53,241 nt of DNA from a virus (Duplodnaviria > Caudoviricetes), in the IMG/VR virus record IMGVR_UViG_3300024331_000030, positions 1 to 53,241 of that record; one strand, written 5' to 3'. This document shows positions 3,921 to 52,544 of this stretch, piece after piece (the first letter of the stretch is position 1; each line of letters starts with the position of its first letter). Below the pieces are notes generated by a model. The model worked only from the letters and a program-made list of their open reading frames with translations, was not told the DNA's origin and did not search any database. The position numbers and the translations under genes were made by a program.

Positions 3921-3938
3921 TTGGCACGAGAAATGCTA
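3921..3938 (+). promoter_or_regulatory. sigma54 (-24/-12) promoter upstream of the major capsid gene
   Basis: TTGGCACGAGAAATGCTA, GG-N10-GC, intergenic. Confidence 0.88.
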
Positions 3939-3956: not shown

Positions 3957-4002
3957 AGCACAAGGGCATGTGTATCGCTTCTTTAGCACAAGGGCATGTG
4001 TA
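3957..4002 (+). repeat. 18-bp direct repeat x2 (AGCACAAGGGCATGTGTA) in the capsid 5' leader
   Basis: Exact copies at 3957-3974 and 3985-4002. Confidence 0.9.
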
Positions 4003-4044
4003 CAATGTAACCGCTCTATAATAGAGCATAACTACTATATTCTT

Positions 4045-9393: not shown

Positions 9394-9735
9394 ATGAGAA
9401 ACCCAATATCAGTAGTTACTAAAGCCATATCAGAGATTGGCAAGAAGCGCTCTGATAAGTGGCCTGAAGTTCGTAAAGCTTGGTTAGAACAACATCCTAC
9501 TTGTGCTGCTTGTGGTGGAACACTTAATGTTGAAGTACATCACATAGTAGCATTTCACCTTCATCCTGAGTTAGAGTTAGACCCTTCTAACTTTATAACT
9601 CTTTGTGAACCTATTGGCATAGAACATCATTTGAAAGTGGGTCATACAGTTAACGGTAAATCTTCTTGGAAGATTAATAATACTTCTGTTAGAGAAGATG
9701 CACAGAGAATGTTAATAGCTAGCATGAAACATTGA
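9394..9735 (+). CDS. Small HNH endonuclease
   Basis: CAACG...EVHHI...NFITLC...HH. Confidence 0.85.
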   Translation: MRNPISVVTKAISEIGKKRSDKWPEVRKAWLEQHPTCAACGGTLNVEVHHIVAFHLHPELELDPSNFITLCEPIGIEHHLKVGHTVNGKSSWKINNTSVREDAQRMLIASMKH

Positions 9736-15761: not shown

Positions 15762-17581
15762 GTAATGTAGGAAATATAGATACAGAGAAGGGTTCAGAAT
15801 ACAACCAGCTGTCGTTCATTGGAGGTATGAATCTGTTGGGTGATGATACACGTCTTGATACTACACAGTATAGAGTGGGATTTGATTTAACTAATCGCTA
15901 TGACTCTCTAGACCCTGTTCTACAATCTGTAGAGGATACTCAAGCTCCTCAAGGCTTAAAACAAGAGTGTGTTACTTTCGGTCTCTTTGTTATACTGTTT
16001 GTTGCAGGAACAGCTTGGTATAGGTCTTTCAACTCTCAACTCTGGACTGAGATAATACCTTTTCGCGGACGTTTATCTTCCGTAGCTCCTCGTTATTGGT
16101 CTATTTCCGTCCCTCTCGCTACAACTAACTACTACAGAGTAGCTGCAACTACTACCGGCCTTACTGGTAATACTACGGCTGATAGTCGTGGAGTTGTACA
16201 AGCTTTACAAGTTGCGGGAGCTGCGGCAGGCAACATTCCCGGTCTTTTGGTACAAGATAACATTAACCAACCAGTTTTTATATTCCTCGATGGTAATGGT
16301 ATTCCTACCTGTAGGATTACACAAACCTTTGCTCAATGGTCTATTACTTTTACCTCCAACTCTAATGCTATAGTAGCAGCTAATGGAGATAAAAGAGAAT
16401 ACGTTCCTATAGGTAATTGCATGGCTTGGACAGACGGTATACTGTATATAGTATCACAAGACTTCTCTCAGATATATCGTTCAGTCTCCGGTCGCCCTTT
16501 AGACTTCATGGTTAATGTTTCTAACCTACTAGTAACAACACCTTGGGTACAGACAGGTGGTGGAGATGCTAGTACCACAGCTTACTCTGTTGGAGTAGGT
16601 GGTATTACTTGTATTAGACCCCTCTCTACTGGTGGTATATTTGTCTCAGCTTCCGGGGCTAACTTTGCTGTTACTCTTGATAAGTCTAATGTTGCTGTTA
16701 AGATATTTGGTGAGTTTACGTTTGACCGGGCCTTTCTCTTTGCATCCAATTGTCTCTCTGATAGAGTTATCTTCGACTCTATTGGTGATACTAGATTTAT
16801 AGAACTCACAGGTATCAAATCTTTTAATGCTATCAAACAATCTACCAATGAAGGTAATAACTCTCCCTTCTCTGCTACCATACACGGAGCTTTCGGGCCT
16901 GATGAGAACCCTATAATACAAGATTTTACTAAGACAGCAGCCGTATTATTTAATGATTATGAACTATACTCTGTTAATACTATCTTCGGTCCAGCCATTG
17001 CAAAGTACGACACTTTGAATAATTGTTGGGTTGGGTTTGATAAACAACAAACAGGAGGTAAAGCAGTTAAGATATTTGCGAAGATAGAGTTATCTATACT
17101 ACGTCTCTTTGCTATAACAGAAGATGACAGACTCTTTACACTCTATATAGGCCCGGAAACTACTACCCCTTACTTCCGTACTGGTGGTATTTGTTTCTCT
17201 GTACTATATGCTGGTAGAGGCTTGAAAATAGCTAACCCTCGTATAGAGTTGAAGATGTTGAGGACAAGGGTTATCTTGAACAAGATAACTAAAGATTGTA
17301 CTTGCACCTTTACACCTTTCTCTGATAATAGACTAGGACAGTCTGCTATAAAACAGAGTATAATTTACGAAAGTCCGGCTATTGTATCTAATGACCCTTT
17401 AGCTCTACAGGATGTGAATACCCAACTTTCTAATCTAGTTTATCCTACCCCTGACGTTAAACAAGCATGGAAGTACTTTGCTACTTTCTCATGGTCTGGT
17501 GGTTCATTTGTACAGTTCTCTATGGAGATGGATGAACTGACCCCCAATCTACCTAACACTACAGAAGGAACAGTATCATGA
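15758..17581 (+). CDS. Tail nozzle / tubular protein B-like (putative; start 15758)
   Basis: SFIGGMN N-terminal motif; beta-propeller-like; ~607 aa. Confidence 0.6.
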   Translation: MSNVGNIDTEKGSEYNQLSFIGGMNLLGDDTRLDTTQYRVGFDLTNRYDSLDPVLQSVEDTQAPQGLKQECVTFGLFVILFVAGTAWYRSFNSQLWTEIIPFRGRLSSVAPRYWSISVPLATTNYYRVAATTTGLTGNTTADSRGVVQALQVAGAAAGNIPGLLVQDNINQPVFIFLDGNGIPTCRITQTFAQWSITFTSNSNAIVAANGDKREYVPIGNCMAWTDGILYIVSQDFSQIYRSVSGRPLDFMVNVSNLLVTTPWVQTGGGDASTTAYSVGVGGITCIRPLSTGGIFVSASGANFAVTLDKSNVAVKIFGEFTFDRAFLFASNCLSDRVIFDSIGDTRFIELTGIKSFNAIKQSTNEGNNSPFSATIHGAFGPDENPIIQDFTKTAAVLFNDYELYSVNTIFGPAIAKYDTLNNCWVGFDKQQTGGKAVKIFAKIELSILRLFAITEDDRLFTLYIGPETTTPYFRTGGICFSVLYAGRGLKIANPRIELKMLRTRVILNKITKDCTCTFTPFSDNRLGQSAIKQSIIYESPAIVSNDPLALQDVNTQLSNLVYPTPDVKQAWKYFATFSWSGGSFVQFSMEMDELTPNLPNTTEGTVS

Positions 17582-17943
17582 ACACAGAACCCACATTTGG
17601 GGATTTGATAAACTTTATACTTGAGAACAGAAAAGATAAAGTTTTTGTAGGTGATAGTATAGATACTGTAATCACTAAATGTCAAAAAGGCATTAAAGAA
17701 GGAACACTACTATTTAGTGTTGGCACAGATAATGCTATAAATGGTATGATATTAGCAGAAGAAAACTGGCCTGAACAAGGAGTGTTATTTGTTATAGAAA
17801 ATTTATCTATGTCTTTAGAGAATCTTAGAAAATTTGCTAAGATAGCCAAAAAGCGTAAACCTAACCACAGACTAGAGTGGTTTAAACACCATATACATAA
17901 GACACATAGCACAGAAAAACTTTACGAAAAACTACATGTATGA
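17578..17943 (+). CDS. Small protein between tail and ejection genes (GNAT-like position)
   Basis: Gene order typical of podoviruses; ATGA overlaps. Confidence 0.5.
   Translation: MNTEPTFGDLINFILENRKDKVFVGDSIDTVITKCQKGIKEGTLLFSVGTDNAINGMILAEENWPEQGVLFVIENLSMSLENLRKFAKIAKKRKPNHRLEWFKHHIHKTHSTEKLYEKLHV
17720..17737 (+). promoter_or_regulatory. Internal sigma54 promoter upstream of the ejection-protein genes
   Basis: TTGGCACAGATAATGCTA, GG-N10-GC, about 200 bp before 17940. Confidence 0.7.
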
Positions 17944-19055
17944 TATTTAACAATAAGATAGAAATACAACTAGGCTTACGTTGTTATCAAGGTGGTGGTA
18001 GCACTTCACAAAGTGAAGGACGCCCACAGGCTACACCACAACAGATGCTTCAAATATACGGACAAGCGTTGCCGGGAATCTTGGGTACTACATCTGCTCA
18101 AGCTACACCAACAGCTCAAGCTCTTGCTGGTGCTGCTAGTTCTGCTAACCCTATTTATACTAATAGTGTTCTTAATCAACTTAAAGGTTCTGGTACTGGA
18201 TATGTTAATACTGGTAATGATTTATCACAGACGCAAGCCGCCGGGCAGAATGCTCTATTGACTGGTACAGGGGGTCAAGCTGCTGGAAGCGCTGCTACTC
18301 TTAACGCTAGACTTAACCAAACACAAGGAGCCGCTAACACACAAGGTGCTAATCTTCTTAACTCTATAAACCTTAATGGTTTATCGCCCGGCGAGTTTAA
18401 TGCTACTGAAAGAGCTAACAATCAAAATCTTACTTCTACAGGTAATTTAGGTGTTGATAACCCTACAAATACATTATCCAATGCAATGAATTTTGGCGGA
18501 GCTTTCAACAATAAAATTGGTATACTTGGTAATGCTCTTAATCAAACTGCTGGTGTTTCAGCCAATCAACAGACTCAAGTTAATCCTGTTGGTACAGCTC
18601 TAGGAGCCGGTAATCTTGCTAATAATTTTGGGGCTAATTTATTTAATCCATCACAAGCTAATAGTAACCTTACTGTTCCGTTCTCTGCTGCTTCCGCTCT
18701 CGGCAATCAAGTTGCTTCTGTTTCTTCTGCCTCTAACACCAATTCTGGAAGTGGTGAAAGTCATGGTGGTATTTGCTTTCTTACTACAGTTGCTTGTGAG
18801 TATAAAGGTTTACCAGATGATTGCAAAGAATTACAAATACTCCGGTCTTTCCGTAATACTACAGTTCCAGTAGAACTGATTGATGAGTATAATAGAATAG
18901 CACCTTCTATAGTTGAAAAGATTAAAGGTGTGAAAGAGCATATGGATTATATATGGTCTGTTGTACAGGAATGCATAAAAGATATAAATGAAGGATATAA
19001 TGCTGATGCAATAGCCAAGTATAGAATGATGGTTATTAAACTTCAAAATCTATGA
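17940..19055 (+). CDS. Internal virion/ejection protein with C-terminal CFI-box-CTERM-like domain
   Basis: Gly/Asn/Ala-rich body; GGICFLTTVAC...DDCKELQILRSFR C-terminus. Confidence 0.65.
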   Translation: MIFNNKIEIQLGLRCYQGGGSTSQSEGRPQATPQQMLQIYGQALPGILGTTSAQATPTAQALAGAASSANPIYTNSVLNQLKGSGTGYVNTGNDLSQTQAAGQNALLTGTGGQAAGSAATLNARLNQTQGAANTQGANLLNSINLNGLSPGEFNATERANNQNLTSTGNLGVDNPTNTLSNAMNFGGAFNNKIGILGNALNQTAGVSANQQTQVNPVGTALGAGNLANNFGANLFNPSQANSNLTVPFSAASALGNQVASVSSASNTNSGSGESHGGICFLTTVACEYKGLPDDCKELQILRSFRNTTVPVELIDEYNRIAPSIVEKIKGVKEHMDYIWSVVQECIKDINEGYNADAIAKYRMMVIKLQNL

Positions 19056-19652: not shown

Positions 19653-20942
19653 ATGGGAGCTTTAGGAGAACAAATTGGACTAGGTCTTTTAGACTCAACT
19701 TATACACCACAACGTACACCCGATTTGTATGTTAATAGCAATGGTCAATATGTAGATGCTACAGGTAAACCATCTACACCTTATACACCCCCTTCATGGA
19801 TTAATAGAGTTGTATCACCTACAGCTAGACAAATAGCTAACTTAAATGCAGAATCTTCTCTAGCACCTTTAGAAGCACAAAGACAGAACGCAATAAGAAA
19901 TACTATCGGGGGTTCTAACTTTGCTAAGATGAGAGCCGCTGGTGTTACTGGTCAAGGATTTGCAGATGTACCAGATGATGTAGGATTTATGGCTAATCCT
20001 TCTATGTCTCCATCTGTTTACACTTCTGAAGGTACTGGCATATTGAATAATAGAGGAGGGCTACAAGGTCTTACTTCTAATACCGATATAGGTAGTGCTC
20101 AATATAACCTAGAACATGTTAAAAGAGCTTTGAGCAGGCAACAAGTAAGTGAAGCTGGGTTAGACCAAGATACTATAAATGCTCTACATGCTAGTACACA
20201 CCTTACTCCAACAGTTACAGACAATGCTATCGCTAGAGCTAAAGGAGAAGCGGGTAGAATGACAAGAGAACAATCTCTATTGGGTACTCAAATAGATGCA
20301 GCTAATCTAGGTGCTGATGTTGATAAATCTCTAGCTATGACCAGAAAGGATATGACTCCTGTACTACAGGATACTCTTGCGACCGGACTGTATAATGAAG
20401 GCTGGGGAGTTCATCATCAACCAGTTCCCGGGCCTCTTAGTGTAGGGGTCGATAGTCATGGTGTTCGTACTACTGAACATACGCCCGGCGGTATGAATGC
20501 TGCACTCACAGGTATGGCCGGTATTCCCGGAGCACCAGACCCTTTAGCTACTATGGGTACTATACCATTAAGTTCTGGTAGGTCTATAGTAGCACCAAGA
20601 GGAGTTAAGCCGACTGTTAACTCCTATAGTGACAGACCACAATACGGCCCATTGTCTTATCCGTCTAGTCCTTCTTCCCGTCCTACAGTCCAACAAACTG
20701 CTGTACAACAAAATAGACCACAGACTACTAATGTCGCTGACAGTCAAGCTCAACAATTTAGACCTCTTGTTGGTTCTGGTGTTGGAACTAATACTTATAG
20801 AATGCCTGATAATACAGAAGCCTGGTTGAAGAATGCTTACAATGCTGACGTACCAGTTATCAAAGTAGGGGCTGTACACACTGGTAGAGCATTAGCTAAT
20901 CTACTTAGACTCTTAGAAGCACAACCTATGGAGAAATGGTAA
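19653..20942 (+). CDS. Internal virion protein (putative; start 19653)
   Basis: Composition and position. Confidence 0.55.
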   Translation: MGALGEQIGLGLLDSTYTPQRTPDLYVNSNGQYVDATGKPSTPYTPPSWINRVVSPTARQIANLNAESSLAPLEAQRQNAIRNTIGGSNFAKMRAAGVTGQGFADVPDDVGFMANPSMSPSVYTSEGTGILNNRGGLQGLTSNTDIGSAQYNLEHVKRALSRQQVSEAGLDQDTINALHASTHLTPTVTDNAIARAKGEAGRMTREQSLLGTQIDAANLGADVDKSLAMTRKDMTPVLQDTLATGLYNEGWGVHHQPVPGPLSVGVDSHGVRTTEHTPGGMNAALTGMAGIPGAPDPLATMGTIPLSSGRSIVAPRGVKPTVNSYSDRPQYGPLSYPSSPSSRPTVQQTAVQQNRPQTTNVADSQAQQFRPLVGSGVGTNTYRMPDNTEAWLKNAYNADVPVIKVGAVHTGRALANLLRLLEAQPMEKW

Positions 20943-27198: not shown

Positions 27199-27248
27199 AT
27201 TAACTCTCTTAATCCAAGGGGGTTATCCGACTTCTCGTCACTCCAATT
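27189..27248 (-). pseudogene. Orphaned duplicate of the last 19 codons of the polymerase gene
   Basis: Translates as NWSDEKSDNPLGLRELIWL*, versus the polymerase end NWGPQTKENELGLRELIWL*. Confidence 0.85.
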
Positions 27249-27723
27249 ATCTTGCAGCAAATTCTCCATGATATTTAATCACAGCTGCATCATAAGCGGT
27301 CTGAGCTTCAGCTTGAGTATCCCACCAACCTAATGTTAATCTTCCTTCTTTGGTGCGTATTCTAGCTGTCCACCTATTACTTCTTTTATCCAAAACAGTC
27401 CCCCTACCGGGTGTTGCAAATCTTGCACCAAAACAATTTTCTTGGTGAGTTACTAATCGAAGATTAGACTTCTTATTGTTTAACCTATTCTTGTCTATAT
27501 GGTCAACATTTAAGTCTAAGTCAGTTAACAAACAATTAAGTAAGAATCTAGATAAAATTATCTTAACCCTCTTACCATCAATCTTTGTCCAACCTACAAT
27601 CTGTTTAGTCTTCCTATTTAAATGCCATTCACAAGTACCAGTAAGGGCTGTACTAACTCTCAAGTAATCTTCATCATCTATTTCAATATCAATGTTATCG
27701 TAAATTTTGTATATCATAACCAA
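27247..27723 (-). CDS. HNH-AP2 homing endonuclease
   Basis: VDHIDKNRLNNKKSNLR HNH; WTARIR...LGWWDTQAEAQTAYD AP2. Confidence 0.92.
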   Translation of the reverse strand: MVMIYKIYDNIDIEIDDEDYLRVSTALTGTCEWHLNRKTKQIVGWTKIDGKRVKIILSRFLLNCLLTDLDLNVDHIDKNRLNNKKSNLRLVTHQENCFGARFATPGRGTVLDKRSNRWTARIRTKEGRLTLGWWDTQAEAQTAYDAAVIKYHGEFAAR

Positions 27724-35108: not shown

Positions 35109-35382
35109 GGTGTAAATGAGTATTGTGATTTAGATTGGTGGGTGTAGATAAGCATTTCACTATATCAGCAACTCTAAACACTGTGTACAGTTGACTTAGA
35201 GTCAGGAGTCTTAACACTCCCGCGTTTATCTTTCGCCATACACCCGACATAAATTTGTGTACTGTAGGTGGAGATTCTATCCAATCTTCTTGACTCGGAT
35301 TGTTCACATCCTTCAATCAAGCGTGCTCTCTGTAGTACTACTTTTCGATGATAGACTACTAAATACACTACTTACAGTACAA

Positions 35383-35575
35383 CCCAACAGATGAACTTGC
35401 GAGTAACATAACTGTTGGGAAATTAAAGAGAGTAGTGTAACCCGTTAGCCTGTATCCACGGAGTCGGGATACCAATCGGCTTGCTTATACACTACTCTCA
35501 AATTGGAACTCTCTGTCCCTTAGTCTTGCAACTAAGACCACCCGTAGGTAATACGTTCCTCCGCGGTCAGAGAGT
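35383..35575 (-). ncRNA. Cluster of three closed-stem RNAs, one tRNA-sized and CCA-ended (35504-35575)
   Basis: Stems CCCAACAG/CTGTTGGG, GAGAGTAGTGTA/TACACTACTCTC and ACTCTCTG/CAGAGAGT+TCCA, separated by AATTT. Confidence 0.55.
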
Positions 35576-35783
35576 CAAGTGTAGGTTACTATTCCACCCA
35601 CACAGAAGTCAGACAAGTTATAGTTACTTGACCAAACTATACTACTAACTATACACAGTCTAAGAGACCCTACGACGAGTCTTACCTTTCGACCAGACAA
35701 TCTAGTAGCGATGGATTGTCGAACATACCATCTAACTCTTAGTAGAGATGAGGAAACAAACTCTACTACAGAGGAAACTTATA

Positions 35784-35801
35784 TAGCATTTTCCATGCCA
35801 A
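35784..35801 (-). promoter_or_regulatory. sigma54 promoter for the replication operon
   Basis: TTGGCATGGAAAATGCTA. Confidence 0.88.
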
Positions 35802-35827
35802 TTGTACCAACTCTAGAGTCTCTATCA

Positions 35828-36772
35828 TTAGTTAATACAACCCCATACGGAGTATCGCACAATGTATTGCTGCAATGAGCGTACATTGTAAGGGACTTGT
35901 AGTGAACCATTCTCCAAGTGTTCTCCATACTCTTTTAGAAATGCCTCCCCGCCCTGTAAAGATTTACAGATAGGTACTATATCACACTTCCTGTTTGAGA
36001 GAGATTGTATAGAAAGACTAAGAGTACTTATACGAGCATACAAGTCCTCGCGGAATGTCTTATGCTCTACCATCTTCTCTAGATTTTTATTGGTAGCAAA
36101 GACAAACTTACAGGTAATCTCTTCATCATCCTTACCTCCTACTTTCCTTATAGTCCGCTCTTGTAGAATACGTAATAGCTTAGCTTGCATAGGTAATGGA
36201 AGTTCACCTACTTCATCTAGAAACATAACCCCATTAGCCGCATCTATTACTAGCCCATTCCTAGTAGACTCCGCACCTGTGAAAGCTCCTCTTACATAAC
36301 CAAAGAGTTCTGCCTCAATTAAGTTCTCTGGCATAGCTGCACAGTTGATTGCTCTTGTGTGACCTGTCCTATTGTATATCTGGGACTTAGCAATTATCTC
36401 TTTGCCGGTTCCTGTAGGGCCGTAGATAAGTACTTCGTTAATAACTTTAGAAGCCTTAAGAGCTTTCTCTTTCATCTCAAGAGTCTCATCGTGTACTGTA
36501 ATAAACTTACCTAAATGCAGTTCGCCGGGACAGAGAGTGTCTTTGATGAACCAGAATCTTTCACCTATGGGAACATCAGCAAAGATACCCACATTAACTT
36601 TACCATCTGCTACACCTTCTAGTATAGTGTACGGAAGTTTAAACTTATCTATCCATGTCTGTGCTGTATCAACGAAGTCTATACCATTCTTCAAGTAGAG
36701 TTCCAACTTCTGTCTTGAAGGTATAGGAGTTGTGTCTTGTGGAGGAGGTTGTGATTTTAGCGGGAAGGCCAT
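35828..36772 (-). CDS. sigma54 activator (bEBP AAA+), lacking the C-terminal HTH
   Basis: GPTGTGKE, INCAA, ELFGYVRGAFTGA, FLDEVGELP, QAKLLRILQE, ATNKNL, FREDLY, NVRSL; the protein ends 14 aa later. Confidence 0.96.
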   Translation of the reverse strand: MAFPLKSQPPPQDTTPIPSRQKLELYLKNGIDFVDTAQTWIDKFKLPYTILEGVADGKVNVGIFADVPIGERFWFIKDTLCPGELHLGKFITVHDETLEMKEKALKASKVINEVLIYGPTGTGKEIIAKSQIYNRTGHTRAINCAAMPENLIEAELFGYVRGAFTGAESTRNGLVIDAANGVMFLDEVGELPLPMQAKLLRILQERTIRKVGGKDDEEITCKFVFATNKNLEKMVEHKTFREDLYARISTLSLSIQSLSNRKCDIVPICKSLQGGEAFLKEYGEHLENGSLQVPYNVRSLQQYIVRYSVWGCIN

Positions 36773-37611: not shown

Positions 37612-38540
37612 AGGTCTATTTCATTACGAAATCCGACGTATATTGGACTTCTTGGTTTGATTTTCTGCCCAAAGGGTTTGTGCTTTATCACTATAGTCTT
37701 TCCTAAGAAGGCTTCTCTATCCCACCAAATATCTGCTCGTCTCCCATCTGTCAACCCTACACCTGTACCCACTCTTACTTCTATACCATTCTCTAGTCTA
37801 CAGATGAAAGCTCCTAGTGTACCTTTGCCTATAAGTTTAGATTGACAACTGCTTCTATCCATCTTACCCACCGCATTTCTCTTAATACTATTCCCATTGT
37901 ACATCTGTTCCTCAAAGCCTATGATGGTACATTCTGTTCTTATGAAGCGAGCTAACTTAACTAGGTATTGTTCCTTGAGGGTTGAACGGCCTTGTTTGTA
38001 GGGTGAGTCAGGTAGGCGGAAACAAATGCCTTCGCCTTCTTGTTGTTCACACTGCTTGAAATAGTTTAATAGTTCTTCTGGTGCATAACATATCCATGTA
38101 CCATCATACTTAACATCTGCCCAATCTAGATTAATCTCTTGTAGTATATAGCTTAGTCTTGCGCTATAAACTCTTATATGCTTATCAGTATCACCAAAGA
38201 ACCAATCCAACACATGAAACTCTATCTCACCCTCACGCTCATGACTCTCCGACATAACTATAGATTCCACTTCATCATACGATAAGTGTGGTGCCCATAG
38301 TTCCATATCGAAACCATAAGGGAGTTTCATGCTCCTCATCCTTATACTCACATTAGGTATAAGGTTTAGAGTGCGGGAGCGTAGGTCGTCTAGTCTTATG
38401 GCTCGTATGCCATCCTTCTTAAGAGACGCTAAGACAGGATACTTTAACTTCCCCATCGCCTGTAAGATAGACTCATCTGTGTGTGGGTCGTTAGGCTTGA
38501 GAAGGGAGGCAGCAAGCATCGGAGACTTGAAAGGTGTCAT
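37608..38540 (-). CDS. lig: ATP-dependent DNA ligase
   Basis: KKDGIR motif I, FHVLD, EGICFR, YKQGRS, VGTG, RSPIY. Confidence 0.93.
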   Translation of the reverse strand: MTPFKSPMLAASLLKPNDPHTDESILQAMGKLKYPVLASLKKDGIRAIRLDDLRSRTLNLIPNVSIRMRSMKLPYGFDMELWAPHLSYDEVESIVMSESHEREGEIEFHVLDWFFGDTDKHIRVYSARLSYILQEINLDWADVKYDGTWICYAPEELLNYFKQCEQQEGEGICFRLPDSPYKQGRSTLKEQYLVKLARFIRTECTIIGFEEQMYNGNSIKRNAVGKMDRSSCQSKLIGKGTLGAFICRLENGIEVRVGTGVGLTDGRRADIWWDREAFLGKTIVIKHKPFGQKIKPRSPIYVGFRNEIDL

Positions 38541-38676
38541 AAATTAATAGATATACAACGGTTCCAATTCCAGATTCTAAAGTAGAAATGTATGTTATGC
38601 TCACCTTTGTATAACTGAAAGCCTAATATCTCTCTTATTATACTCTTACCTTCACCTACCCTATAGATTGCTATCT

Positions 38677-41010
38677 TCATTCTTCCTCTCCTTCTTCTAA
38701 GTCATCAGGACTAGATTCTTCTGGCAAAGTATCTATATACTTTTGCGCCGTAGAAGTATCATCACTAGTCACCATCTGACTCCAAGATTCTTTATGTTTA
38801 ACTATCTTCGACAAACACCTAAGACCTCTATTCGCAATGTCCGCAACTCTCGATTCTATCGTTCCGTTGTAGAATATGAGACGTTGGACTGTCTTAGATA
38901 GAGATGTAAGTCGCGGGACCCGGCCTACACCTTGTACTAGTTCTATGGGAGACCAAGTAGGGCAGCCTAAGACCTCCCGTTCCCTCACAGGTACTAGAGG
39001 AATATCTTCTTCAACTGCATAACCCGACTCTTTCCGGCGGCATTTAAACTTAGTCAGTTCATCGGAATGGTGAAGTGATAGACCAACACCACCAGCCTTA
39101 AGAGTGTAAAAGCAATAGAGACTATCACCTCGCTGAAACTTATCTATCTCTAGTTGACGAGCCTCAGGAGTTTGTATACCTAGACGTAGATACTCTGGTA
39201 TATCCATTATCTCTCTATCTTCCACATCATCTAAGTCTACTGTCTCTAAGAGTTCCTCTTGAGTCATCCCTAGAGCATCTAGTTGCTCCTGTGTCATCCC
39301 CATTATCTTCTTCTTCTGCTTCTGTGCTTTAGTAAGTTGAGTCTGACCACCGCCCCATATGATAGAGATTTTCTCGCGAGGTACTCCATACTTCTCTACT
39401 AGAAGTTGAACAGTTTTAATGATAGAGTTCTTAAAGGAGAAGAAGCAAACAGCAGCCTTATTCTTCTCCTCAACAATCTTATACATTTCATCAGCTATAT
39501 GACCTGACCTCATTAGTTCAGCCTTCATGCGGAAGATAAGAAACTGAACTAAAATCTCTAGACCATTACCTTTGCCGGTCATTGCAGCTTCTGACTCTGC
39601 TTTAGCCTTCTTCTCTAGATAGTCCTCCCACGCCTTCATGTACTCCCGCTTCTCCTCAGCAGTCTTAAAGTTAATACGTTCAATAGAGTTGACAGCCTCG
39701 AACTGAGGACGTACACCTTTGACACGAACTACATACTCCTCCAAGTCAGACATGAGACGTTCACAAGCTGCTTCATTATATTCCTCAGGAGAAGAAGGAT
39801 AAGCTATAGCTTTAGCATAAGAGGGCCAAGTCTCATTAGTTAGGATAGTACCTTCTGGAAAAGCTGTACGTTTACCATTGATATAATCTAGTGATTTCCC
39901 AGTAGCAACAGCAAAACACTTAGCCTCTATGACTTTAGTAAAGGGAGTCGCGGAGACAAAAGCTTGCTTAGGTCTCACACGCAAAGGCATATCGTTAAGA
40001 GCGCAAGCTATCTGGTGTTGTTGACTACCAGCATTCTTGAGGACTTGACACTCATCCCATGGTATGAAAGCTGGTTGAATACCTTTCTTCCATATCCATT
40101 TAGTTACCTCTTCTCCTTCATCTAGTGTTACTTCCTCTTTCAACCAATACTGTCCAGCTCTAGACCTCAGCATCTCTATGTTAATAACTTCACACATATC
40201 GACATCAATGTTGAAAGCATTCTTGAGGACGCGGGAAGTCTGTGTAACTATGGAAGCTTTAGTTACATAGACATAAGGTATATGGGAAAATGTCCTACCT
40301 TCATGAAACTCTGTGTCTATAAAGTGCCGTATCAAGTCCCCTACAATACCAGTCTTACCAGTTCCGGTTCCCGCAAGAATCATGACTACGGGTTTATCTT
40401 TAAGTATCTCTATAGCTTCTGAGACAGCCTTCTTCTGGTGCCAGAAAGGATGCCAGTCTTTGGAGATATTAGGAGAGCGGGTGTATAGATAATCGTTATC
40501 GGCTGTACGCTCTAGCTTGGAAGGCGTTACTGATTTAAGGACTCGCGGCAAGTCAGTGACAATAGTGTCTCTAACTTCTCGCTTGTTGGACTCTCCAGAC
40601 TCTCTATCATTGCACTCTTGAATCTTATCCAAAGCCTTTGTCGCAAGAGATACTCCGTTGACCTCTTGACTAGCTTGAGACGGCACTTCCCTGACGGCTT
40701 GAATATCCGTACTTTGTAGTGTGGTGTTATTTTCATAGAGTGGTTTCTTAGATGATTCTTCTATCTCTTTTTCTAGCTTGTCTTTTAGACTAGCCAAAAA
40801 GTCTTTTAGTTGAGGAAATGTTAGCTCACCTTGCTTATCGGCAAATTTAGTGTTACGGTATTCTTGACTGTACCCTAACTTACTTAAGACGCCATTCCAG
40901 TCTCTACTTATACTACCAAAATTCCAAGCAGACAAGACACTATTATGATGTTCTGTCTGTTGGTCTCTAAGAGTCTTCTGTCTCTTTTGTTCTAGAGTTA
41001 GTTTGGCCAT
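38677..41010 (-). CDS. SF2 helicase, Strawberry-notch-like
   Basis: GTGTGKT, DECQ, SATP, AGGVGLSLH, WSPIELVQGVGRVPR. Confidence 0.85.
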   Translation of the reverse strand: MAKLTLEQKRQKTLRDQQTEHHNSVLSAWNFGSISRDWNGVLSKLGYSQEYRNTKFADKQGELTFPQLKDFLASLKDKLEKEIEESSKKPLYENNTTLQSTDIQAVREVPSQASQEVNGVSLATKALDKIQECNDRESGESNKREVRDTIVTDLPRVLKSVTPSKLERTADNDYLYTRSPNISKDWHPFWHQKKAVSEAIEILKDKPVVMILAGTGTGKTGIVGDLIRHFIDTEFHEGRTFSHIPYVYVTKASIVTQTSRVLKNAFNIDVDMCEVINIEMLRSRAGQYWLKEEVTLDEGEEVTKWIWKKGIQPAFIPWDECQVLKNAGSQQHQIACALNDMPLRVRPKQAFVSATPFTKVIEAKCFAVATGKSLDYINGKRTAFPEGTILTNETWPSYAKAIAYPSSPEEYNEAACERLMSDLEEYVVRVKGVRPQFEAVNSIERINFKTAEEKREYMKAWEDYLEKKAKAESEAAMTGKGNGLEILVQFLIFRMKAELMRSGHIADEMYKIVEEKNKAAVCFFSFKNSIIKTVQLLVEKYGVPREKISIIWGGGQTQLTKAQKQKKKIMGMTQEQLDALGMTQEELLETVDLDDVEDREIMDIPEYLRLGIQTPEARQLEIDKFQRGDSLYCFYTLKAGGVGLSLHHSDELTKFKCRRKESGYAVEEDIPLVPVREREVLGCPTWSPIELVQGVGRVPRLTSLSKTVQRLIFYNGTIESRVADIANRGLRCLSKIVKHKESWSQMVTSDDTSTAQKYIDTLPEESSPDDLEEGEEE

Positions 41011-41012
41011 AC

Positions 41013-41195
41013 TTATACCTTAGTCTTACGAAACTTAAAATAGATATTAGGCCAGTCATATAGATTCCAATAAGTAACAGGATTCCACACTTTAGTATAA
41101 CCATATCTAAAGTTATCTTTGTAAGTGAACTCTATTGGAATACCACTATCAAATAACTTCTTCCATTTGTCTAAAGTTCTCTTTGAATTTTTCAT
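41013..41195 (-). CDS. Hypothetical protein
   Basis: Packed ORF. Confidence 0.55.
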   Translation of the reverse strand: MKNSKRTLDKWKKLFDSGIPIEFTYKDNFRYGYTKVWNPVTYWNLYDWPNIYFKFRKTKV

Positions 41196-42741: not shown

Positions 42742-43482
42742 CTAGTCTTTACTGCCTTTCATAGCGGCTGTGATGGCGGTGCGCCAAGTTTTCTGACTGG
42801 CTGCTGTTGATGGATTAAACTTGAAGTGTTCATAAATATGGACTGTTCTGTGTTTATCCATATAATCCAACCTTTCTTTATCCTCCACTAATCCCGCCGC
42901 ATGTTTGGTAAGGATTTGTTTTATTTGTTCTAAGTCTTCTGTTGAAAATGCTATAGGTATCTCATGCTCAATCTCCTCACTCGCCTCCTTAATCCAGTCG
43001 GGTGAGGTGGGAATAGTAACAACCTGTGATTTTCTGCGTGTTGTATCACGCAGGTAATTATCATTTAAACGAACAGTAGAGCAACCGTCTGCGTGACCGT
43101 TCATTTCACCACATATAGAGCATTGTTTCATAGTAGGTGGGGTGGGAGGAGTGGCGCGGGTGTTCCATCGTTGAACTAGATTTATATCTGGATTAGTGCC
43201 ATCAGTTGAAAAGGAGCGATACATGTTCGCTCCACATTTAATACAGGCAATGAATCGTCCGGTATAATTGGGATGGAAGCCTTGATTTGCAGGTTGTGAG
43301 GCTTCTCCGCCACAAAACGGACACGGCATCAATGCTTGTTCTTTGTTGGTGGGCGCAAGTTCTGGTGCGTCCGTGGGCATAAAACACTGCTTACACATCC
43401 ACCCATCACCATCAGGTGCTTGAATAATATCAGCATTACAACAAGTAGATTTCATAGGCATTAATTTGGTTTCTGGGGGCAT
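42742..43482 (-). CDS. Mosaic zinc-finger protein containing a Lar (restriction alleviation)-like domain
   Basis: LMPCPFCGG...IACIKCGA...WNTR; further CC..CxxC and CxxC..H..C units. Confidence 0.72.
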   Translation of the reverse strand: MPPETKLMPMKSTCCNADIIQAPDGDGWMCKQCFMPTDAPELAPTNKEQALMPCPFCGGEASQPANQGFHPNYTGRFIACIKCGANMYRSFSTDGTNPDINLVQRWNTRATPPTPPTMKQCSICGEMNGHADGCSTVRLNDNYLRDTTRRKSQVVTIPTSPDWIKEASEEIEHEIPIAFSTEDLEQIKQILTKHAAGLVEDKERLDYMDKHRTVHIYEHFKFNPSTAASQKTWRTAITAAMKGSKD

Positions 43483-43487
43483 GGTGG

Positions 43488-43673
43488 CTATTCAGTTTTA
43501 ATTGCTTCGATTGCTGCTTTGTTTCTACTCTCGATGCGCTCAATGGCCTTTCGTGCGCTCGCTATAGCTTCTTTTTGGTTTGGTAGCAGAGTTGGCGTCA
43601 ATTCAATGCCTTTCAACACTCCGCTTATTGTGCCTATGTCATAAGCATTTTCCGCTAAATCACACATTTTCAT
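43488..43673 (-). CDS. Hypothetical protein
   Basis: Packed ORF. Confidence 0.55.
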   Translation of the reverse strand: MKMCDLAENAYDIGTISGVLKGIELTPTLLPNQKEAIASARKAIERIESRNKAAIEAIKTE

Positions 43674-43713
43674 TTGTCAATCCTTTCTTCGTTGGTTTGT
43701 TTCTGGGGACATG

Positions 43714-43893
43714 TTAGTTCTTAGTTATTTGCCAGATGATTGGAAAGCACGGTATCAGGCAAAGATAAAACGTGCGACGTTGCCAAGTTCCAATTCTGAA
43801 TCCTTCGCTTACTTTGCCTTTCTCGCCGACCTTGATTTCAGTCTTCCAATATAAGCCAATCCAACAATTCTGAGGCACAAATTTAACCTTCAT
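43714..43893 (-). CDS. Hypothetical protein (start 43893)
   Basis: MKVKFVPQNCWIGLYW...YLCLIPCFPI. Confidence 0.6.
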   Translation of the reverse strand: MKVKFVPQNCWIGLYWKTEIKVGEKGKVSEGFRIGTWQRRTFYLCLIPCFPIIWQITKN

Positions 43894-45991: not shown

Positions 45992-46066
45992 TGGTTGACT
46001 CTGTTGGACTCGAACCAACACTCAACGGCTTATGAAGCCGTAGCTTCACCTTTAAGCTAAGAGTCA
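45992..46066 (-). tRNA. tRNA with CAT anticodon (elongator Met or Ile2)
   Basis: TGACTCT/AGAGTCA acceptor; ACGGC-TTCATAA-GCCGT; GTTGG-TTCGAGT-CCAAC; encoded CCA. Confidence 0.92.
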
Positions 46067-46227: not shown

Positions 46228-46446
46228 CTACTTCTTAAATGCCGAAGGAAAACGATAGCGAGCTTCCGCTTTTGTGAGACGATTACACTCTTCCATTTCA
46301 TGTTTATCAAATAAAGCAGGATACCATTCTGAAGTATCTATATCGCAGAACATACCTTCATTAGGCTTATCAAGTTCAAAACGATAAAGACGAGTGTGAT
46401 TTGATATATCCTTAGTGTAATACCAATGTGTTCTTGCTTGGGGCAT
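46228..46446 (-). CDS. Hypothetical protein
   Basis: 72-aa ORF in the early arm. Confidence 0.55.
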   Translation of the reverse strand: MPQARTHWYYTKDISNHTRLYRFELDKPNEGMFCDIDTSEWYPALFDKHEMEECNRLTKAEARYRFPSAFKK

Positions 46447-46746
46447 AATAGTTCTTAGTGTTAATGGTTGTTATAGGTTTGAAAGGGCCGGCTCTTAATC
46501 AGCCTGTTGTTCTGTCTCCTTGATATGAACACGAATCTTACCAAAAGCGTTGAGTCTTTGTTCTTCTCGCAAACACCATTCTAACAAAGATTTGTCAAAT
46601 GCTTCTTTGGTCATAGGATGACTGGTGTAAAATCAAAGATACTACGTTTCTTATGGAGAGGGTTTATAGCACACATAATGTTTGTAGAGTCAACTAGTCT
46701 TGTTCTCCTCCGCGCTTCGCGCTCCGGGGCCTTATTATCCGTATGG

Positions 46747-47080: not shown

Positions 47081-47426
47081 AAACACCAACTACCACAGAG
47101 ATTGATATAACTACAGGTAAGAGGTAGTGTTGGAAGGAAGGTCTAATGGTAATTGGTGTTTAGGGCTAATATGCACTCTGCATTGATTTACAGGCTTGTG
47201 ACTGTTGATAACTATCAGTAAACACAGAGGTATATTATGTGAAGTGATTAGAGACACACAACATACTCTTAATGTATTTCAATCTATACTCTCGATTGCC
47301 TAGAACATACGGAGTTCTGTGCTTACTGGGCAGTTATCAGCTGCATTGCATATTAACACTTAACCACCGATAAACCCCTCACTCATTGTTGTCTAGCGTG
47401 AGGAACAACATTTAGGATGATTAAAA

Positions 47427-47886: not shown

Positions 47887-47904
47887 TAGCATAAATCATG
47901 CCAA
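47887..47904 (-). promoter_or_regulatory. sigma54 promoter
   Basis: TTGGCATGATTTATGCTA. Confidence 0.88.
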
Positions 47905-48125: not shown

Positions 48126-48533
48126 TTATTCCTTCACTGACAGAGTATCAACCCACTTCTGCAAGTCTTCCCGCAAAACCCATTTGGTTTTGCCGAACGA
48201 GACTTCATTCTTACCCGCGTCACCGGCCCATTGGATTGCCCTGACGACTGCCAAAGGGTTAGTCATGGTGACTCCCTTTGCTTTGCTGGCATCCGCAATG
48301 GTAACTTTACCATTCTCCCCCGCCTTACCAATTTTCATGGTGGCGGAGACGTTGCGGAAAGCCGCACCAGCGTCACTACCAGCTTGCTTGGCAATCTTTT
48401 CCGCTTTGGCTGGTTCAATGCCAAAGATGCTCTGACACGCATCATAGATGCGTTGCATCTCCGCACTGTATCGGCCATTGCCAAAGTTGGGCTTGGTTGA
48501 TACTTCAGTTGTGTTTTCAAGTGTCGCGTTCAT
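48126..48533 (-). CDS. First early gene, hypothetical protein
   Basis: 135 aa; followed by the hairpin CCCTTAGAGTG/CACTCTAAGGG. Confidence 0.75.
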   Translation of the reverse strand: MNATLENTTEVSTKPNFGNGRYSAEMQRIYDACQSIFGIEPAKAEKIAKQAGSDAGAAFRNVSATMKIGKAGENGKVTIADASKAKGVTMTNPLAVVRAIQWAGDAGKNEVSFGKTKWVLREDLQKWVDTLSVKE

Positions 48534-48741: not shown

Positions 48742-48758
48742 TAGCATCCCTCATGCCA
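48742..48758 (-). promoter_or_regulatory. sigma54 promoter (first early promoter)
   Basis: TGGCATGAGGGATGCTA. Confidence 0.85.
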
Positions 48759-49142: not shown

Positions 49143-49160
49143 CAGCATTATCTATGCCAA
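49143..49160 (-). promoter_or_regulatory. sigma54 promoter
   Basis: TTGGCATAGATAATGCTG. Confidence 0.8.
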
Positions 49161-49165
49161 TATAG

Positions 49166-49183
49166 TTGGCACACTCTTTGCTA
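49166..49183 (+). promoter_or_regulatory. sigma54 promoter
   Basis: TTGGCACACTCTTTGCTA. Confidence 0.85.
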
Positions 49184-49185
49184 AA

Positions 49186-49202
49186 AAGCATCTATCATGC
49201 CA
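49186..49202 (-). promoter_or_regulatory. sigma54 promoter
   Basis: TGGCATGATAGATGCTT. Confidence 0.78.
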
Positions 49203-49765
49203 TCTTATTAGACTATCAGTAGATTGTATTAACATCTAATAAACCTTAAATATTAATAATTATAATATACAATCGGTAATAACCTTTATTTTATAAAAAT
49301 ATTAATAATATATATATATTACTAGTTATATTAGTTAATACAACTCCAAATAACTGGCCCCCACCGGAGGGAGGGAAAAAGCATTTTCGACCCTGTATCA
49401 GTATTAAATACAAGTATATTGTATATGTATTACGCATTATACAGGGTCTAAGTGGATGATTAATAAAGGTTAAATGAGAGACTAATAGTGTGCCAATGTG
49501 ACACTATTCTAAGTGTAGTAGTGAATCTTATAGAGTCATATTGACACACTTACTTAACTTTACTAATTATCTACAGCCCGCACCCTTTAAGAGTCATTAC
49601 TTACACTAATATCTAATGACCTACTATTAGTTTGTCTAATAGAAAGAAACCAGAAGTTAGAATGCGAAGTGGAACTATACCTCTCTTAGAACACAAGCAA
49701 TTTCAAGATTTAACCTACGTTTAATAGAACTACTAATAGGGGTCAGAAGAGTAGTCTTTAGAGGG

Positions 49766-49782
49766 TGGCATGATTCTTGCTA
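49766..49782 (+). promoter_or_regulatory. sigma54 promoter at the start of the late arm
   Basis: TGGCATGATTCTTGCTA. Confidence 0.88.
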
Positions 49783-50173: not shown

Positions 50174-50611
50174 ATGACTAGTTCTGACGCACAACTTGTT
50201 AAAGCTTACGAAGCAGGAAGAACTCCTGATGAGATAGCTGAAGAGTTTGGTTTTTATACTCACCATGTAAAAGCCCGGCTTATGGCTATCTCTACTACTT
50301 ATCGTAAAGCTTGCGGTCAGGAACCTGAAGGTGAAGATGAAGTTAACTTTTCTAGAGATGAACAGTTAACCATAAAAAGAGAACTCTTCCAGATGGCTAT
50401 GTCTACAGAAGACCAGCATCTTAAAGCGAAACTTTTGTTAAACTTACGGGATGACGGGAAAGGTAGAAAAGATATAGTGAGGGACATGAAGAATAACGGG
50501 AACATCAATATCATGCAACTAATCAATAACTCTATCTCTCAAGCCTCTCAAAGCGCTGACCATTTAATAGCTTCTGTAGGACGTAAGACACCTAAGACAA
50601 TTGATGCCTAA
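50174..50611 (+). CDS. Terminase small subunit (putative)
   Basis: N-terminal HTH (TPDEIAEEFG); directly upstream of and overlapping TerL. Confidence 0.6.
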   Translation: MTSSDAQLVKAYEAGRTPDEIAEEFGFYTHHVKARLMAISTTYRKACGQEPEGEDEVNFSRDEQLTIKRELFQMAMSTEDQHLKAKLLLNLRDDGKGRKDIVRDMKNNGNINIMQLINNSISQASQSADHLIASVGRKTPKTIDA

Positions 50612-52544
50612 TCAACTAGACATTACTTCTTTCCGGAAACTTAGTCCTCACAGCCAAGAAGACTTCTTAGCTGATGGGGGTATTATAGTTTCTACTACCA
50701 CTGTTCCTTTGGAGAGTGTGATTTCTCTCCCTAAGGAGGGTGGCAGTGGGAGTAGTAAGGAGTTGGAGGTTGGCTTTGTTGATGTATTGCCGTTACATGT
50801 CAATATTGAGACTCCTCCAACTCCCCAACCTTCTGCGAGCGTAGCGAGCGGTTCGAGTCAACCTCAGCAAGCTGAGCAACCCGAAGTCAAGAAAGAGTAT
50901 AGTGATGAAGAGAAAGCTTTCATAGGTCAGTGGACAGAGGGGTTTGATATACCAACTCCTGTCCATCTCCTAATGATTCTCGATGATGATATAAGTTCCG
51001 GCCGCCACCACTTACACCCTTGGCAGATAGAGTTCATGCTAGATTTTGCTTATGAAGGCCACACTAAAGATAACCCCTTTTATGCGGCAGTTCAAGCAGC
51101 TAATGGTTCCGGCAAAGATAAGTATGTAGTCGCGGCTTGTGCAGTATGGTTGTGTATGAGGTACTCTAAGGCTAGAGCTGTCACAACTAATGGTTCAGGT
51201 GCTCAGTTGGACAGTCAGACAGAACACTACATCAATGACTTGTGTGAGTCTGCTAACCTTAAATGGGCGGGAGGTAAGGAACTTATATGGAAGTGTACTT
51301 ATAGGTACTATGAATGTATACCCACTAAGTCACCCATCACACTCTTTGCGACAGATGAACCTAACAAAGCGGAAGGTTATCATCCTCTCAAGGCAGGAGG
51401 TAAGATGGCCATATTCGCATCTGAAGCTAAGGCTATCCCTGATGAAATCTTTGGAGCACTCACTCGTTGTAAAGGATTCACCCACCGTATTGATGTTTCA
51501 TCTCCCGGTCTCCCTATAGGTTACTTCCACACCCAATGTACCAATAGTGTAAATCGCCGGACTTTCGATAGTATTACAGATAAGTCCCCCGGTTCTACAA
51601 TTCTCTATCATATTACAGCTTTCGATTGCTCACATATTAGTGAACAGGAAATTAAAGACTTTGCAGATAAGTGTCCATCAGGAGTTAATGACCCTCTTTA
51701 TATCTCTGGTGTTCTAGCTCAATTTACCACTACAGATGAGATGGTGGTTATACCTTATGCTTTCATCATGTGGGGTTATAAGGATGCTCCTAAGAAAGTA
51801 GAGTGGATACAAGAACCTTTCAATAAAGGTGGTCTAGACCTTTCGGATGGTGGAGCTGAGACTTGCTTAGTAGTAAGGAACGGGAACCGGCACTTGAGGA
51901 CTATACCATTTAAGTTCCAAGATACACAAGATACTATACACTTCTTGGAAGATAAGTTTGGTGAGAATGCTCTTACACATAGGGATGCTTTAGTGTTCTC
52001 TGATTGTTGTGGTATAGGTAAGCCTATGCTTGACCAACTAAAGTCTCGTGGGTGGTCGAATATGAGATATGTGGATAGTAGACATAAGAGTTCAGATAAG
52101 AAGGTCTACTTTAATAGAGGGACAGAACTCTTCTTTAATATACGCTTACTCCTAGAACGCAAAGAACTAATAGTTGAGTACGATAAACTCTTGTGTTCTC
52201 AGTTGTCCGGTCGTTATTATAAGTTGAGAGATGGTACTGTAAGACAGTTATTAACTAAACTAGAACAGAAGTCTCGTGGGTACCCTTCACCTGATAGAGC
52301 TGATGCTTTTAACTTAGCCTTCTGGGACTATAAGACTACTAGAACTTTTAAAGATTATCATGAGTCAGCTCCTTCTACTCCTGAATCTATGGTAGAGATA
52401 GTCAAACCAGTAAGTGATTTCTCCCTAAGACAGTGGGCTAGTAGTGATACTACTAATCTAGAGTCTTTTAGGAAGAATGTTAGTAAACATAAACCAATAA
52501 CCTATCTACAACGTGAGTTGGATAGGTATTTAAGAAAGAACTAA
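50604..52544 (+). CDS. terL: Terminase large subunit
   Basis: LHPWQ; AANGSGKD Walker A; GLDLSDGG, DCCGIG and SPDRADA nuclease motifs. Confidence 0.92.
   Translation: MPNQLDITSFRKLSPHSQEDFLADGGIIVSTTTVPLESVISLPKEGGSGSSKELEVGFVDVLPLHVNIETPPTPQPSASVASGSSQPQQAEQPEVKKEYSDEEKAFIGQWTEGFDIPTPVHLLMILDDDISSGRHHLHPWQIEFMLDFAYEGHTKDNPFYAAVQAANGSGKDKYVVAACAVWLCMRYSKARAVTTNGSGAQLDSQTEHYINDLCESANLKWAGGKELIWKCTYRYYECIPTKSPITLFATDEPNKAEGYHPLKAGGKMAIFASEAKAIPDEIFGALTRCKGFTHRIDVSSPGLPIGYFHTQCTNSVNRRTFDSITDKSPGSTILYHITAFDCSHISEQEIKDFADKCPSGVNDPLYISGVLAQFTTTDEMVVIPYAFIMWGYKDAPKKVEWIQEPFNKGGLDLSDGGAETCLVVRNGNRHLRTIPFKFQDTQDTIHFLEDKFGENALTHRDALVFSDCCGIGKPMLDQLKSRGWSNMRYVDSRHKSSDKKVYFNRGTELFFNIRLLLERKELIVEYDKLLCSQLSGRYYKLRDGTVRQLLTKLEQKSRGYPSPDRADAFNLAFWDYKTTRTFKDYHESAPSTPESMVEIVKPVSDFSLRQWASSDTTNLESFRKNVSKHKPITYLQRELDRYLRKN

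Follow-up and report, generated by a model that had tools for sequence, protein, structure and literature searches.

Which transcription machinery serves a phage that carries no recognisable RNA polymerase (RNAP) or sigma factor of its own? The question is raised by IMG/VR virus record IMGVR_UViG_3300024331_000030, whose full length of 53,241 bases, with a CheckV completeness of 100%, was analysed here and is referred to as the window. The window is the complete genome of an uncultured tailed phage. Its minus-strand gene at 35828..36772 encodes a protein with the AAA+ domain of sigma54 activators, and 11 sites in the genome resemble -24/-12 promoters. The sigma54-RNAP binds promoters of this class as a closed complex, which is opened only by an AAA+ activator via its GAFTGA loop. 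It is proposed from sequence comparison, with a probability of about 80%, that the phage makes an activator of its own and thereby redirects the sigma54-RNAP of the host to the phage promoters, the activator probably working without an enhancer.

The activator gene has the following features:

35828..36772, minus strand: activator gene, 314 amino acids, with a family-specific N-terminus (about residues 1-93), a sigma54-interaction AAA+ domain (residues 94 to about 300) and no C-terminal helix-turn-helix (HTH)
36398..36421, minus strand: Walker A motif GPTGTGKE, residues 118-125 of the translation
36272..36289, minus strand: GAFTGA loop (the sigma54-contacting L1 loop), residues 162-167 of the translation
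35828..35887, minus strand: C-terminus NVRSLQQYIVRYSVWGCIN, in which the translation reads a sensor-II-like NVRSL, then 14 residues and the stop codon

The protein matches the Pfam family Sigma54_activat (PF00158) with an E-value of 1.7e-53 and 181.2 bits (cut-off 20.2), over residues 94-253 and profile positions 5-167 of 168. In a phmmer search against the PDB, the AAA+ domains of FleQ, NtrC1, FlrC, ZraR, and PspF are aligned, including the segment ELFG..GAFTGA, with E-values of 1e-43 to 1e-29 for FleQ, NtrC1, and PspF. The GAFTGA loop tells sigma54 activators from other AAA+ proteins and from relatives acting on sigma70. NCBIfam yields domain-level matches only, to many activators and all far under the full-length cut-offs, and the PHROGs match is phrog_7998, annotated as 'unknown function'. 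Among the matches listed, the closest cellular relatives come from many phyla and share 36-49% identity, with alignment over the AAA+ domain alone. A tblastn search of GenBank phages returned AAA+-level matches only, mostly from mislabelled bacterial records.

The phage protein belongs to a family of at least 120 protein cluster representatives with 45-81% identity, all of them 201-321 amino acids long and many encoded on contigs of 47-58 kb. Of 120 members, 118 carry the Walker A pattern G..G.GKE and 115 carry Walker B, and D186 and E187 of the Walker B motif FLDE are invariant in alignment A1. The L1 loop is found as G[AS][FY]T[GD][AGS] in 120/120 members, with T165 invariant in the same alignment. 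There, R247 of FREDLYARIS and R298 of NVRSL are also invariant, and R241 is nearly so. By analogy with PspF, these residues are presumed to take the arginine-finger and sensor II roles.

A C-terminal Fis-type HTH is typical of enhancer-binding proteins and is missing in a known minority of them. In the phage protein, 147 residues follow GAFTGA, compared with a median of 244 in the cellular relatives, and the tail after N[VCI]RS[LI] measures 13-21 residues in 120/120 family members. As candidates of up to 550 amino acids were admitted to the family search, forms with an added HTH would have appeared among the top matches. Pfam HTH_8 has no match anywhere in the record. Relocation of an HTH to the N-terminus was assessed by hhalign against the C-terminal regions of 64 cellular activators, which gave a probability of 0.3%. 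Residues 1-93 match no Pfam family up to E=1, and a comparison of the N-terminal region with 1.84 billion proteins gave nine weak matches, none below 1e-10. An earlier sequence-only reading of this DNA had described a sigma54-activator domain with intact GAFTGA, an end directly after sensor II, and an N-terminus of about 90 amino acids that is not a recognisable receiver, GAF, or PAS domain. The translation and the profile searches agree with it on these points.

The promoter-like sites follow the pattern TGGCAY-N6-TGC, i.e., GG-N10-GC. This pattern has 11 matches in the window against 0.48 expected (standard deviation 0.61, maximum 2), and a count of at least 11 was reached in 0/100 dinucleotide shuffles. 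The sequence-only reading had found the same 11 sites with the correct GG-N10-GC spacing, but its written form, TGGCAY-N7-TGC, amounts to GG-N11-GC and matches a single unrelated place at 21773. Its coordinates were off by 1-2 nucleotides (nt), except for 49766, which was exact. A position weight matrix (PWM) was trained on 107 sites from relatives only and applied with a threshold of 16 bits. All 11 window sites score 16.9-25.4 bits, while Markov-simulated genomes average 0.12 matches at or above the threshold. The next best position, at 11.0 bits, is the reverse strand of one of the sites. Furthermore, TGGCA-N7-TGC is the top over-represented dyad in the genome (p 8e-10) when all dyads of a 5-mer, a gap of 3-10, and a 3-mer are compared (524,288 tests), and many of the top ranks are taken by shifted or reverse-complement forms of it. 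A repeat finder independently recovers the same site family.

The site consensus is tTGGCAYG-N4-wTGCTw. At the positions that the search pattern left unconstrained, 146 unique sites carry T before TGG in 60%, G or A after TGGCAY in 90%, and T after GC in 90% of cases. These preferences agree with the published sigma54 consensus, given as TGGCAC-N5-7-TTGCT (PMC12316311). The sites in the window are:

3922-3936, plus strand: upstream of gene 3970-5373, the structural gene with the best conservation (putative major capsid protein)
17721-17735, plus strand: inside the crude open reading frame (ORF) 17578..17943, upstream of gene 17940-19055
35786-35800, minus strand: site TGGCATGGAAAATGC, starting 28 nt after the activator stop codon; PWM 24.2 bits
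42691-42705, minus strand: heads the leftward replication operon (helicase, ligase) whose last gene is the activator; PWM 25.4 bits
46178-46192, minus strand: 111 nt upstream of tRNA-Met
47889-47903, minus strand: in the early-like region of small ORFs
48744-48758, minus strand: 210 nt upstream of ORF 48533..48126
49145-49159 (minus), 49167-49181 (plus), and 49188-49202 (minus): divergent control region with three sites within 58 bp, the plus-strand site between the two minus-strand ones; the gene arms diverge here
49766-49780, plus strand: heads the rightward arm, upstream of the large terminase subunit gene 50601-52544

On a crude ORF map that covers 83% of the genome, 10/11 sites are non-coding and 11/11 are co-oriented with the next gene, as the sequence-only reading had stated. 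Apart from the site before the tRNA, the distance from site to ORF ranges from 13 to 420 nt. Leaderless mRNAs are not indicated, as no ATG peak is seen 8-16 nt after the GC (6/131 sites at 16 nt or less). Among the module labels given to the sites earlier, those for replication (the helicase/ligase operon), for the tRNA, and for packaging held, the last through the large terminase gene that follows the 49167 and 49766 sites; the capsid label is plausible only. The ejection label remains tentative, as the structural proteins gave no Pfam or PHROG match.

The same combination of gene and motif is inherited throughout a clade of relatives. In IMG/VR, 137 stretches encode relatives of the activator, and locus counts cover the best 80 of these 137 (L001-L080). 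At least one site is present in 71/80 loci. In the closer loci L001-L050 (833 kb), 120 sites lie on the strand of the activator and 8 on the opposite strand, with at least one site in 49/50 loci. The more distant loci L051-L080 hold 21 sites on the activator's strand and 4 on the opposite one, with at least one site in 22/30. Enrichment in L001-L050 is confined to the N6 spacing, with 128 sites against 6-20 at the other spacings from 2 to 11. The same N6 peak is seen in 80 cellular loci beside cellular activators (48 against 14-25). Of the 128 relatives' sites, 109 are non-coding (binomial P 3e-54 at a coding fraction of 0.79); 112 point along the next gene and 11 against it.

Records related through their terminase (31-74% terminase identity) contain a Sigma54_activat gene in 13/13 cases, with open frames of 244-304 amino acids, and together hold 55 strict sites against 6 for a control pattern. 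In all, gene and motif occur together in 18/18 full records of relatives searched, so that the co-occurrence expected from the sequence-only reading is found both there and in the loci above.

The positions of the sites are conserved as well. In 27/40 related loci, a site lies 6-63 nt after the activator stop codon, and in 36/40 one lies within 700 nt; of the four loci without it, two end at the activator gene itself. Five complete relatives carry 7-10 sites each, against 0-1 for the reversed pattern. A co-oriented site stands directly upstream of the orthologue of gene 3970-5373 in 5/5 of them, before the replication genes in 5/5, and after the activator gene in 4/5. A divergent site pair between the two arms is also present in 5/5. 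Divergent sites that overlap or form pairs are seen again in relatives, for example at 2840(+) and 2856(-) in G002. The counterpart of the 17721 site is found at the same place in 1/5 (G001, 16192+), and in the remaining four the structural arm has a site at another position.

Other transcription machinery was not detected in the record. Sigma70_r2, the core-binding and DNA-binding domains of sigma54, and the rpoN model have no match, and neither does T7-type RNAP in a search made without a positive control. The claim that the phage encodes no RNAP or sigma factor of its own is in line with these results. No k-mer upstream of the sites exceeds the control level, so that no shared enhancer was found by this approach. 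The lack of an HTH and of a common upstream k-mer is consistent with action without an enhancer, and the 90 N-terminal residues have no assigned role.

In the proposed mechanism, host sigma54-RNAP would sit as closed complexes on the 11 phage -24/-12 promoters. The phage protein, presumably an oligomeric ring in solution, would open these complexes by ATP hydrolysis. Both gene arms would start from the control region near 49.2 kb with its three packed sites. From further sites, transcription would resume ahead of the replication operon, directly behind the activator gene, and ahead of the tRNA and of structural genes. Since the operon that begins with the 42705 site ends with the activator gene, the activator would reinforce its own synthesis, and the gene order supports such positive feedback. 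The site right after the activator would then hand over to the downstream recombination and replication genes and to the rightward structural arm. The first round of transcription could be due to a solution-acting host activator, to a sigma70-type promoter that escaped recognition, or to an injected protein.

A broader version extends this mechanism to the whole widespread clade of phages of about 50 kb. Essentially all of their transcription, from early to late, would run on host sigma54-RNAP, with sigma70 bypassed by a phage-encoded AAA+ activator that lacks a DNA-binding domain. The N-terminal domain, itself novel, would serve as a new module for control or recruitment. As a host activator would have to fire the first round, the phage would sense the physiological state of its host before committing itself. 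The activator would then switch on the entire host sigma54 regulon. This version is put forward tentatively, as something more doubtful than probable.

Several observations weigh against the proposal that the phage redirects sigma54-RNAP with its own activator. The start of infection lacks an explanation if the phage activator is required at all promoters. Most phage proteins have no family match, and a very divergent sigma factor or polymerase may be among them. The N-terminal 90 amino acids, without known fold or relatives, could bind DNA. Terminase relatives without the activator gene were sought and 0/13 were found, which leaves no natural absence control. The more distant relatives G009-G013 and G016 have just 2-3 strict sites each. 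An unrelated human-gut phage contig, MT121960.1 ('Phage DP SC_2_H4_2017'), encodes at 19770-20693 a GAFTGA protein of about 300 amino acids with no room for an HTH and with GETGTDKE as Walker A; in the 38.7 kb examined, no strict sigma54-type site is present. A phage activator gene thus need not bring phage promoters with it, and activator genes outside the clade may have a different role.

The leads to the host also conflict, with a Shine-Dalgarno level like that of Bacteroidota and tetranucleotides like those of Thermodesulfovibrionales. Shine-Dalgarno motifs are at background in the phage (4/39 genes against a background of 0.09; 3/49 by a stricter definition), and the sequence upstream of its start codons is A-rich and G-poor. 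In control loci, the Shine-Dalgarno fraction is 0.07-0.08 for two Bacteroidota and 0.17-0.39 for the others. Tetranucleotide usage was compared with that of 40 arbitrary loci, and the two nearest ones, both from Thermodesulfovibrionales (r 0.43 and 0.30), do use Shine-Dalgarno sequences. For the phage tRNA-Met, no close match was found among 151 Bacteroidota genomes, where the best identity is 72% (in 2 genomes), or among 151 Nitrospirota genomes. Sigma54 is present in 5/5 genomes probed from four candidate phyla.

An activator-free start of infection is logically required, and a mixed programme would provide it. Host sigma70-type or lineage-specific promoters would then start the early region and the activator gene, and the sigma54-type sites would act as a middle/late switch only. 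The region from 44.7 to 49.8 kb is packed with small ORFs, as early regions are, and isolated sigma70-like matches exist, for example at 36918-36891(-), just upstream of the activator gene. Pseudomonas phage YuA offers a parallel, since it combines sigma70 promoters with -24/-12 fragments that are located in the late structural region. However, sigma70-type promoters are not enriched in the record (36 found, 44.4 expected), and neither is the Bacteroidetes-type -7 motif TAnnTTTG (55 found, 48.6 expected). A second promoter class is not apparent either, as no other non-coding 8-mer stands out in the genome. Moreover, the early-like region and the control region are themselves headed by sigma54-type sites. 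A mixed programme is judged rather unlikely on this balance.

The phage sites might also be fired by host enhancer-binding proteins, as has to be the case for YuA, with the phage AAA+ protein mainly reprogramming host sigma54 genes and being dispensable for the phage promoters. YuA, which needs host sigma54 (PMC5053324), does so without a Sigma54_activat gene, and MT121960.1 shows a GAFTGA protein without strict sites. An activator lacking a DNA-binding domain cannot, on the evidence of PMC3844500, distinguish host from phage promoters. This explanation is nevertheless improbable, given that gene and sites stay together in all 18 full records of relatives, that a site follows the activator stop so closely in 27/40 loci, and that no common upstream sequence usable as a host enhancer was found. 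Still further from expectation is a motif that serves as operator or promoter for an unrecognised phage DNA-binding protein, sigma factor, or polymerase, with the AAA+ gene unrelated to it. The many phage proteins without family assignment leave room for such a factor, and GCAT-N6-ATGC within the commonest site form is a short palindrome. The palindrome is broken, though, in three sites with TGGCAC and three with TTGC, and the sites fit the sigma54 consensus as printed in PMC12316311 in their two half-sites, in their exact spacing, and in the T that follows GC. The strict direction of the sites (120 against 8 by strand; 11/11 co-oriented) and the same spacing peak beside cellular activators also speak for sigma54, which makes this last explanation very improbable.

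The remainder of the genome is organised in two gene arms, with the divergence point near 49.2 kb. The rightward arm crosses the record ends and takes in the structural genes. The leftward arm, which extends down to 25.8 kb, comprises small ORFs, the tRNA, and then the genes for replication and recombination. Other features of the record are:

50601-52544, plus strand: large terminase subunit, with 27% identity (tblastn, E 3e-25) to the large terminase of Akkermansia phage Chantilly and with Atlas clusters containing Terminase_6N and 6C
45992-46066, minus strand: tRNA-Met, the single tRNA and the sole Rfam match in the record
3453-3917, 9394-9735, and 27247-27723: three HNH-type homing endonuclease ORFs

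The large terminase identifies the record as a tailed phage (Caudoviricetes). Further genes recognised are those for a primase, a DNA polymerase, a helicase, an ATP-dependent ligase, a PD-(D/E)XK nuclease, and an AAA_24 protein. In the plus-strand structural arm at 64-25659 (about 25 kb), 20 larger proteins were scanned with Pfam, and the matches were one DUF1353 and one HNH only. Seven structural-arm proteins, including one of 1571 amino acids, gave nothing informative against PHROGs, with one weak match to a family of unknown function. No structural protein of the record received a PDB assignment, and capsid, portal, and tail proteins were not recognised. Gene 3970-5373 is a plausible major capsid protein because it is the best-conserved structural gene, with 33-81% identity in the relatives. 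The virion module of the clade is uncharted. A megablast search with 15 kb of the window found no match among GenBank phages, and that collection contains no close cultured phage.

An 18-nt direct repeat, AGCACAAGGGCATGTGTA, is found in two copies, at 3957-3974 and 3985-4002, in the leader that connects site 3922 with the putative capsid gene. No significant RNA fold was found in this leader (z-score -0.69). The HNH ORF 3453-3917 is located between the orthologue of gene 2227-3456 and the putative capsid-gene promoter, and in the relatives this promoter directly follows the preceding gene. Downstream of the post-activator site, about 680 nt at 35110-35785(-) contain no long ORF. The stretch has no protein-level match by tblastx against the five complete relatives and none in Rfam, and it may be a non-coding RNA, a long leader, or a set of fast-evolving small ORFs. 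A very AT-rich stretch at about 49230-49340 adjoins the three-site control region. A repeat of about 29 nt (family D2) occurs in three copies, at 43467-43495, 43697-43725, and 46431-46459. Each copy overlaps the start of a minus-strand small ORF, which suggests paralogous early genes or a common translation-start region.

To our knowledge, the transcription take-overs described for phages employ an own polymerase, an own sigma or sigma-like factor, appropriators of sigma70, or activators and antiterminators acting with sigma70. If the proposal is correct, a new strategy would be added. The phage would bring only the ATPase 'key' to a holoenzyme that is locked by default, its whole promoter set being written in the language of sigma54. 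Sigma54 would then be a host-range determinant for an abundant environmental phage clade, and infection would be predicted to induce the sigma54 regulon of the host. Such deregulation of host RpoN genes, already raised by the sequence-only reading, is plausible by analogy with the engineered activator DctD250 (PMC3844500). The phage would also provide a natural, compact (314 amino acids), and probably promiscuous sigma54 activator together with an orthogonal promoter set for synthetic biology. Finally, gene and motif would form a simple genomic signature by which transcription units could be annotated in phages with otherwise unrecognisable proteins.

The literature search, which extended to sources other than subscription journals and supplements, found no phage-encoded AAA+ sigma54 activator with cognate phage promoters. 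The suggestion that the strategy is new is upheld to that extent, but YuA (Yuavirus) is an earlier case of a phage that uses host sigma54, its development being described as 'strictly dependent on the host sigma54 factor' (PMC5053324). What would be new here is the self-encoded HTH-less activator with cognate promoters, found across a clade. In YuA, one sigma54-like promoter was confirmed by ONT-cappable-seq, and most promoters are reported as sigma70-like or as carrying a phage-specific motif (PMC10914365). The YuA record NC_010116 annotates three promoter-trap fragments as '-24/-12 consensus', at 38392-38570, 40888-41035, and 47152-47312, all in the structural region. These fragments contain weak GG-N10-GC candidates only, and the third contains none, so that the sigma54 promoters of YuA look far from consensus. 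The window phage would resemble YuA as a tailed phage tied to host sigma54. Unlike the window phage, YuA has no Sigma54_activat gene and no strict TGGCAY-N6-TGC site.

Other phage proteins linked to sigma54 or to its activators are of a different kind. Gp46 of Bdellovibrio phage phi1422 (PMC3391216) is annotated as 'sigma54-type regulator' and consists of 109 amino acids with a Fis-type HTH only and no AAA+ domain; the phi1422 genome has no strict site and no PF00158 match. Gp2 of Pectobacterium phage Q19 (PMC7693777) shows a weak HHpred match to sigma54 itself. Htm of Mosigvirus AV110 is reported to have an enhancer-binding-protein-like structure and to bind single-stranded DNA, and the abstract mentions no cognate phage promoters (bioRxiv 10.64898/2026.10.06.757011).

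Among cellular proteins, the phage activator is best compared with CtcC, FlgR, FleT, and DctD250, with which it shares a Sigma54_activat AAA+ domain, the GAFTGA loop, and the lack of a C-terminal HTH. FlgR of H. pylori and FleT of R. sphaeroides are enhancer-binding proteins without a DNA-binding domain. CtcC of Chlamydia is likewise a natural activator without such a domain (PMC7482065). DctD250, engineered to the AAA+ domain only, is described as constitutive and promiscuous, active with foreign sigma54-RNAP, and weaker than an enhancer-bound activator (PMC3844500). With DctD250 and the natural CtcC as precedents, the phage protein is read as a solution-acting activator. HTH-less activators, the phage protein included, are expected to act from solution on closed complexes at any sigma54 promoter. 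The phage protein differs from its cellular HTH-less counterparts in being virus-encoded, in having as its N-terminus not a receiver domain but 90 amino acids with no detectable relatives beyond the family, and in its predicted targets, which are the promoters of the virus itself.

E. coli PspF is similarly a short activator that consists essentially of the AAA+ domain, and it aligns with residues 98-268 of the phage protein (E 1e-29). PspF keeps its C-terminal HTH and is restrained by PspA. Unlike PspF, the phage protein has no HTH and carries an extra N-terminal region. A further comparison can be drawn with T4, in which late transcription depends on gp55, gp33, and the gp45 sliding clamp, i.e., on an own sigma-like protein and on the replication clamp as activator. 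As proposed here, the host core RNAP would be redirected to a phage promoter class as in T4, via an activation step resembling enhancer-dependent transcription. In contrast to T4, the sigma factor would be the sigma54 of the host, and the phage would supply the ATPase activator only.

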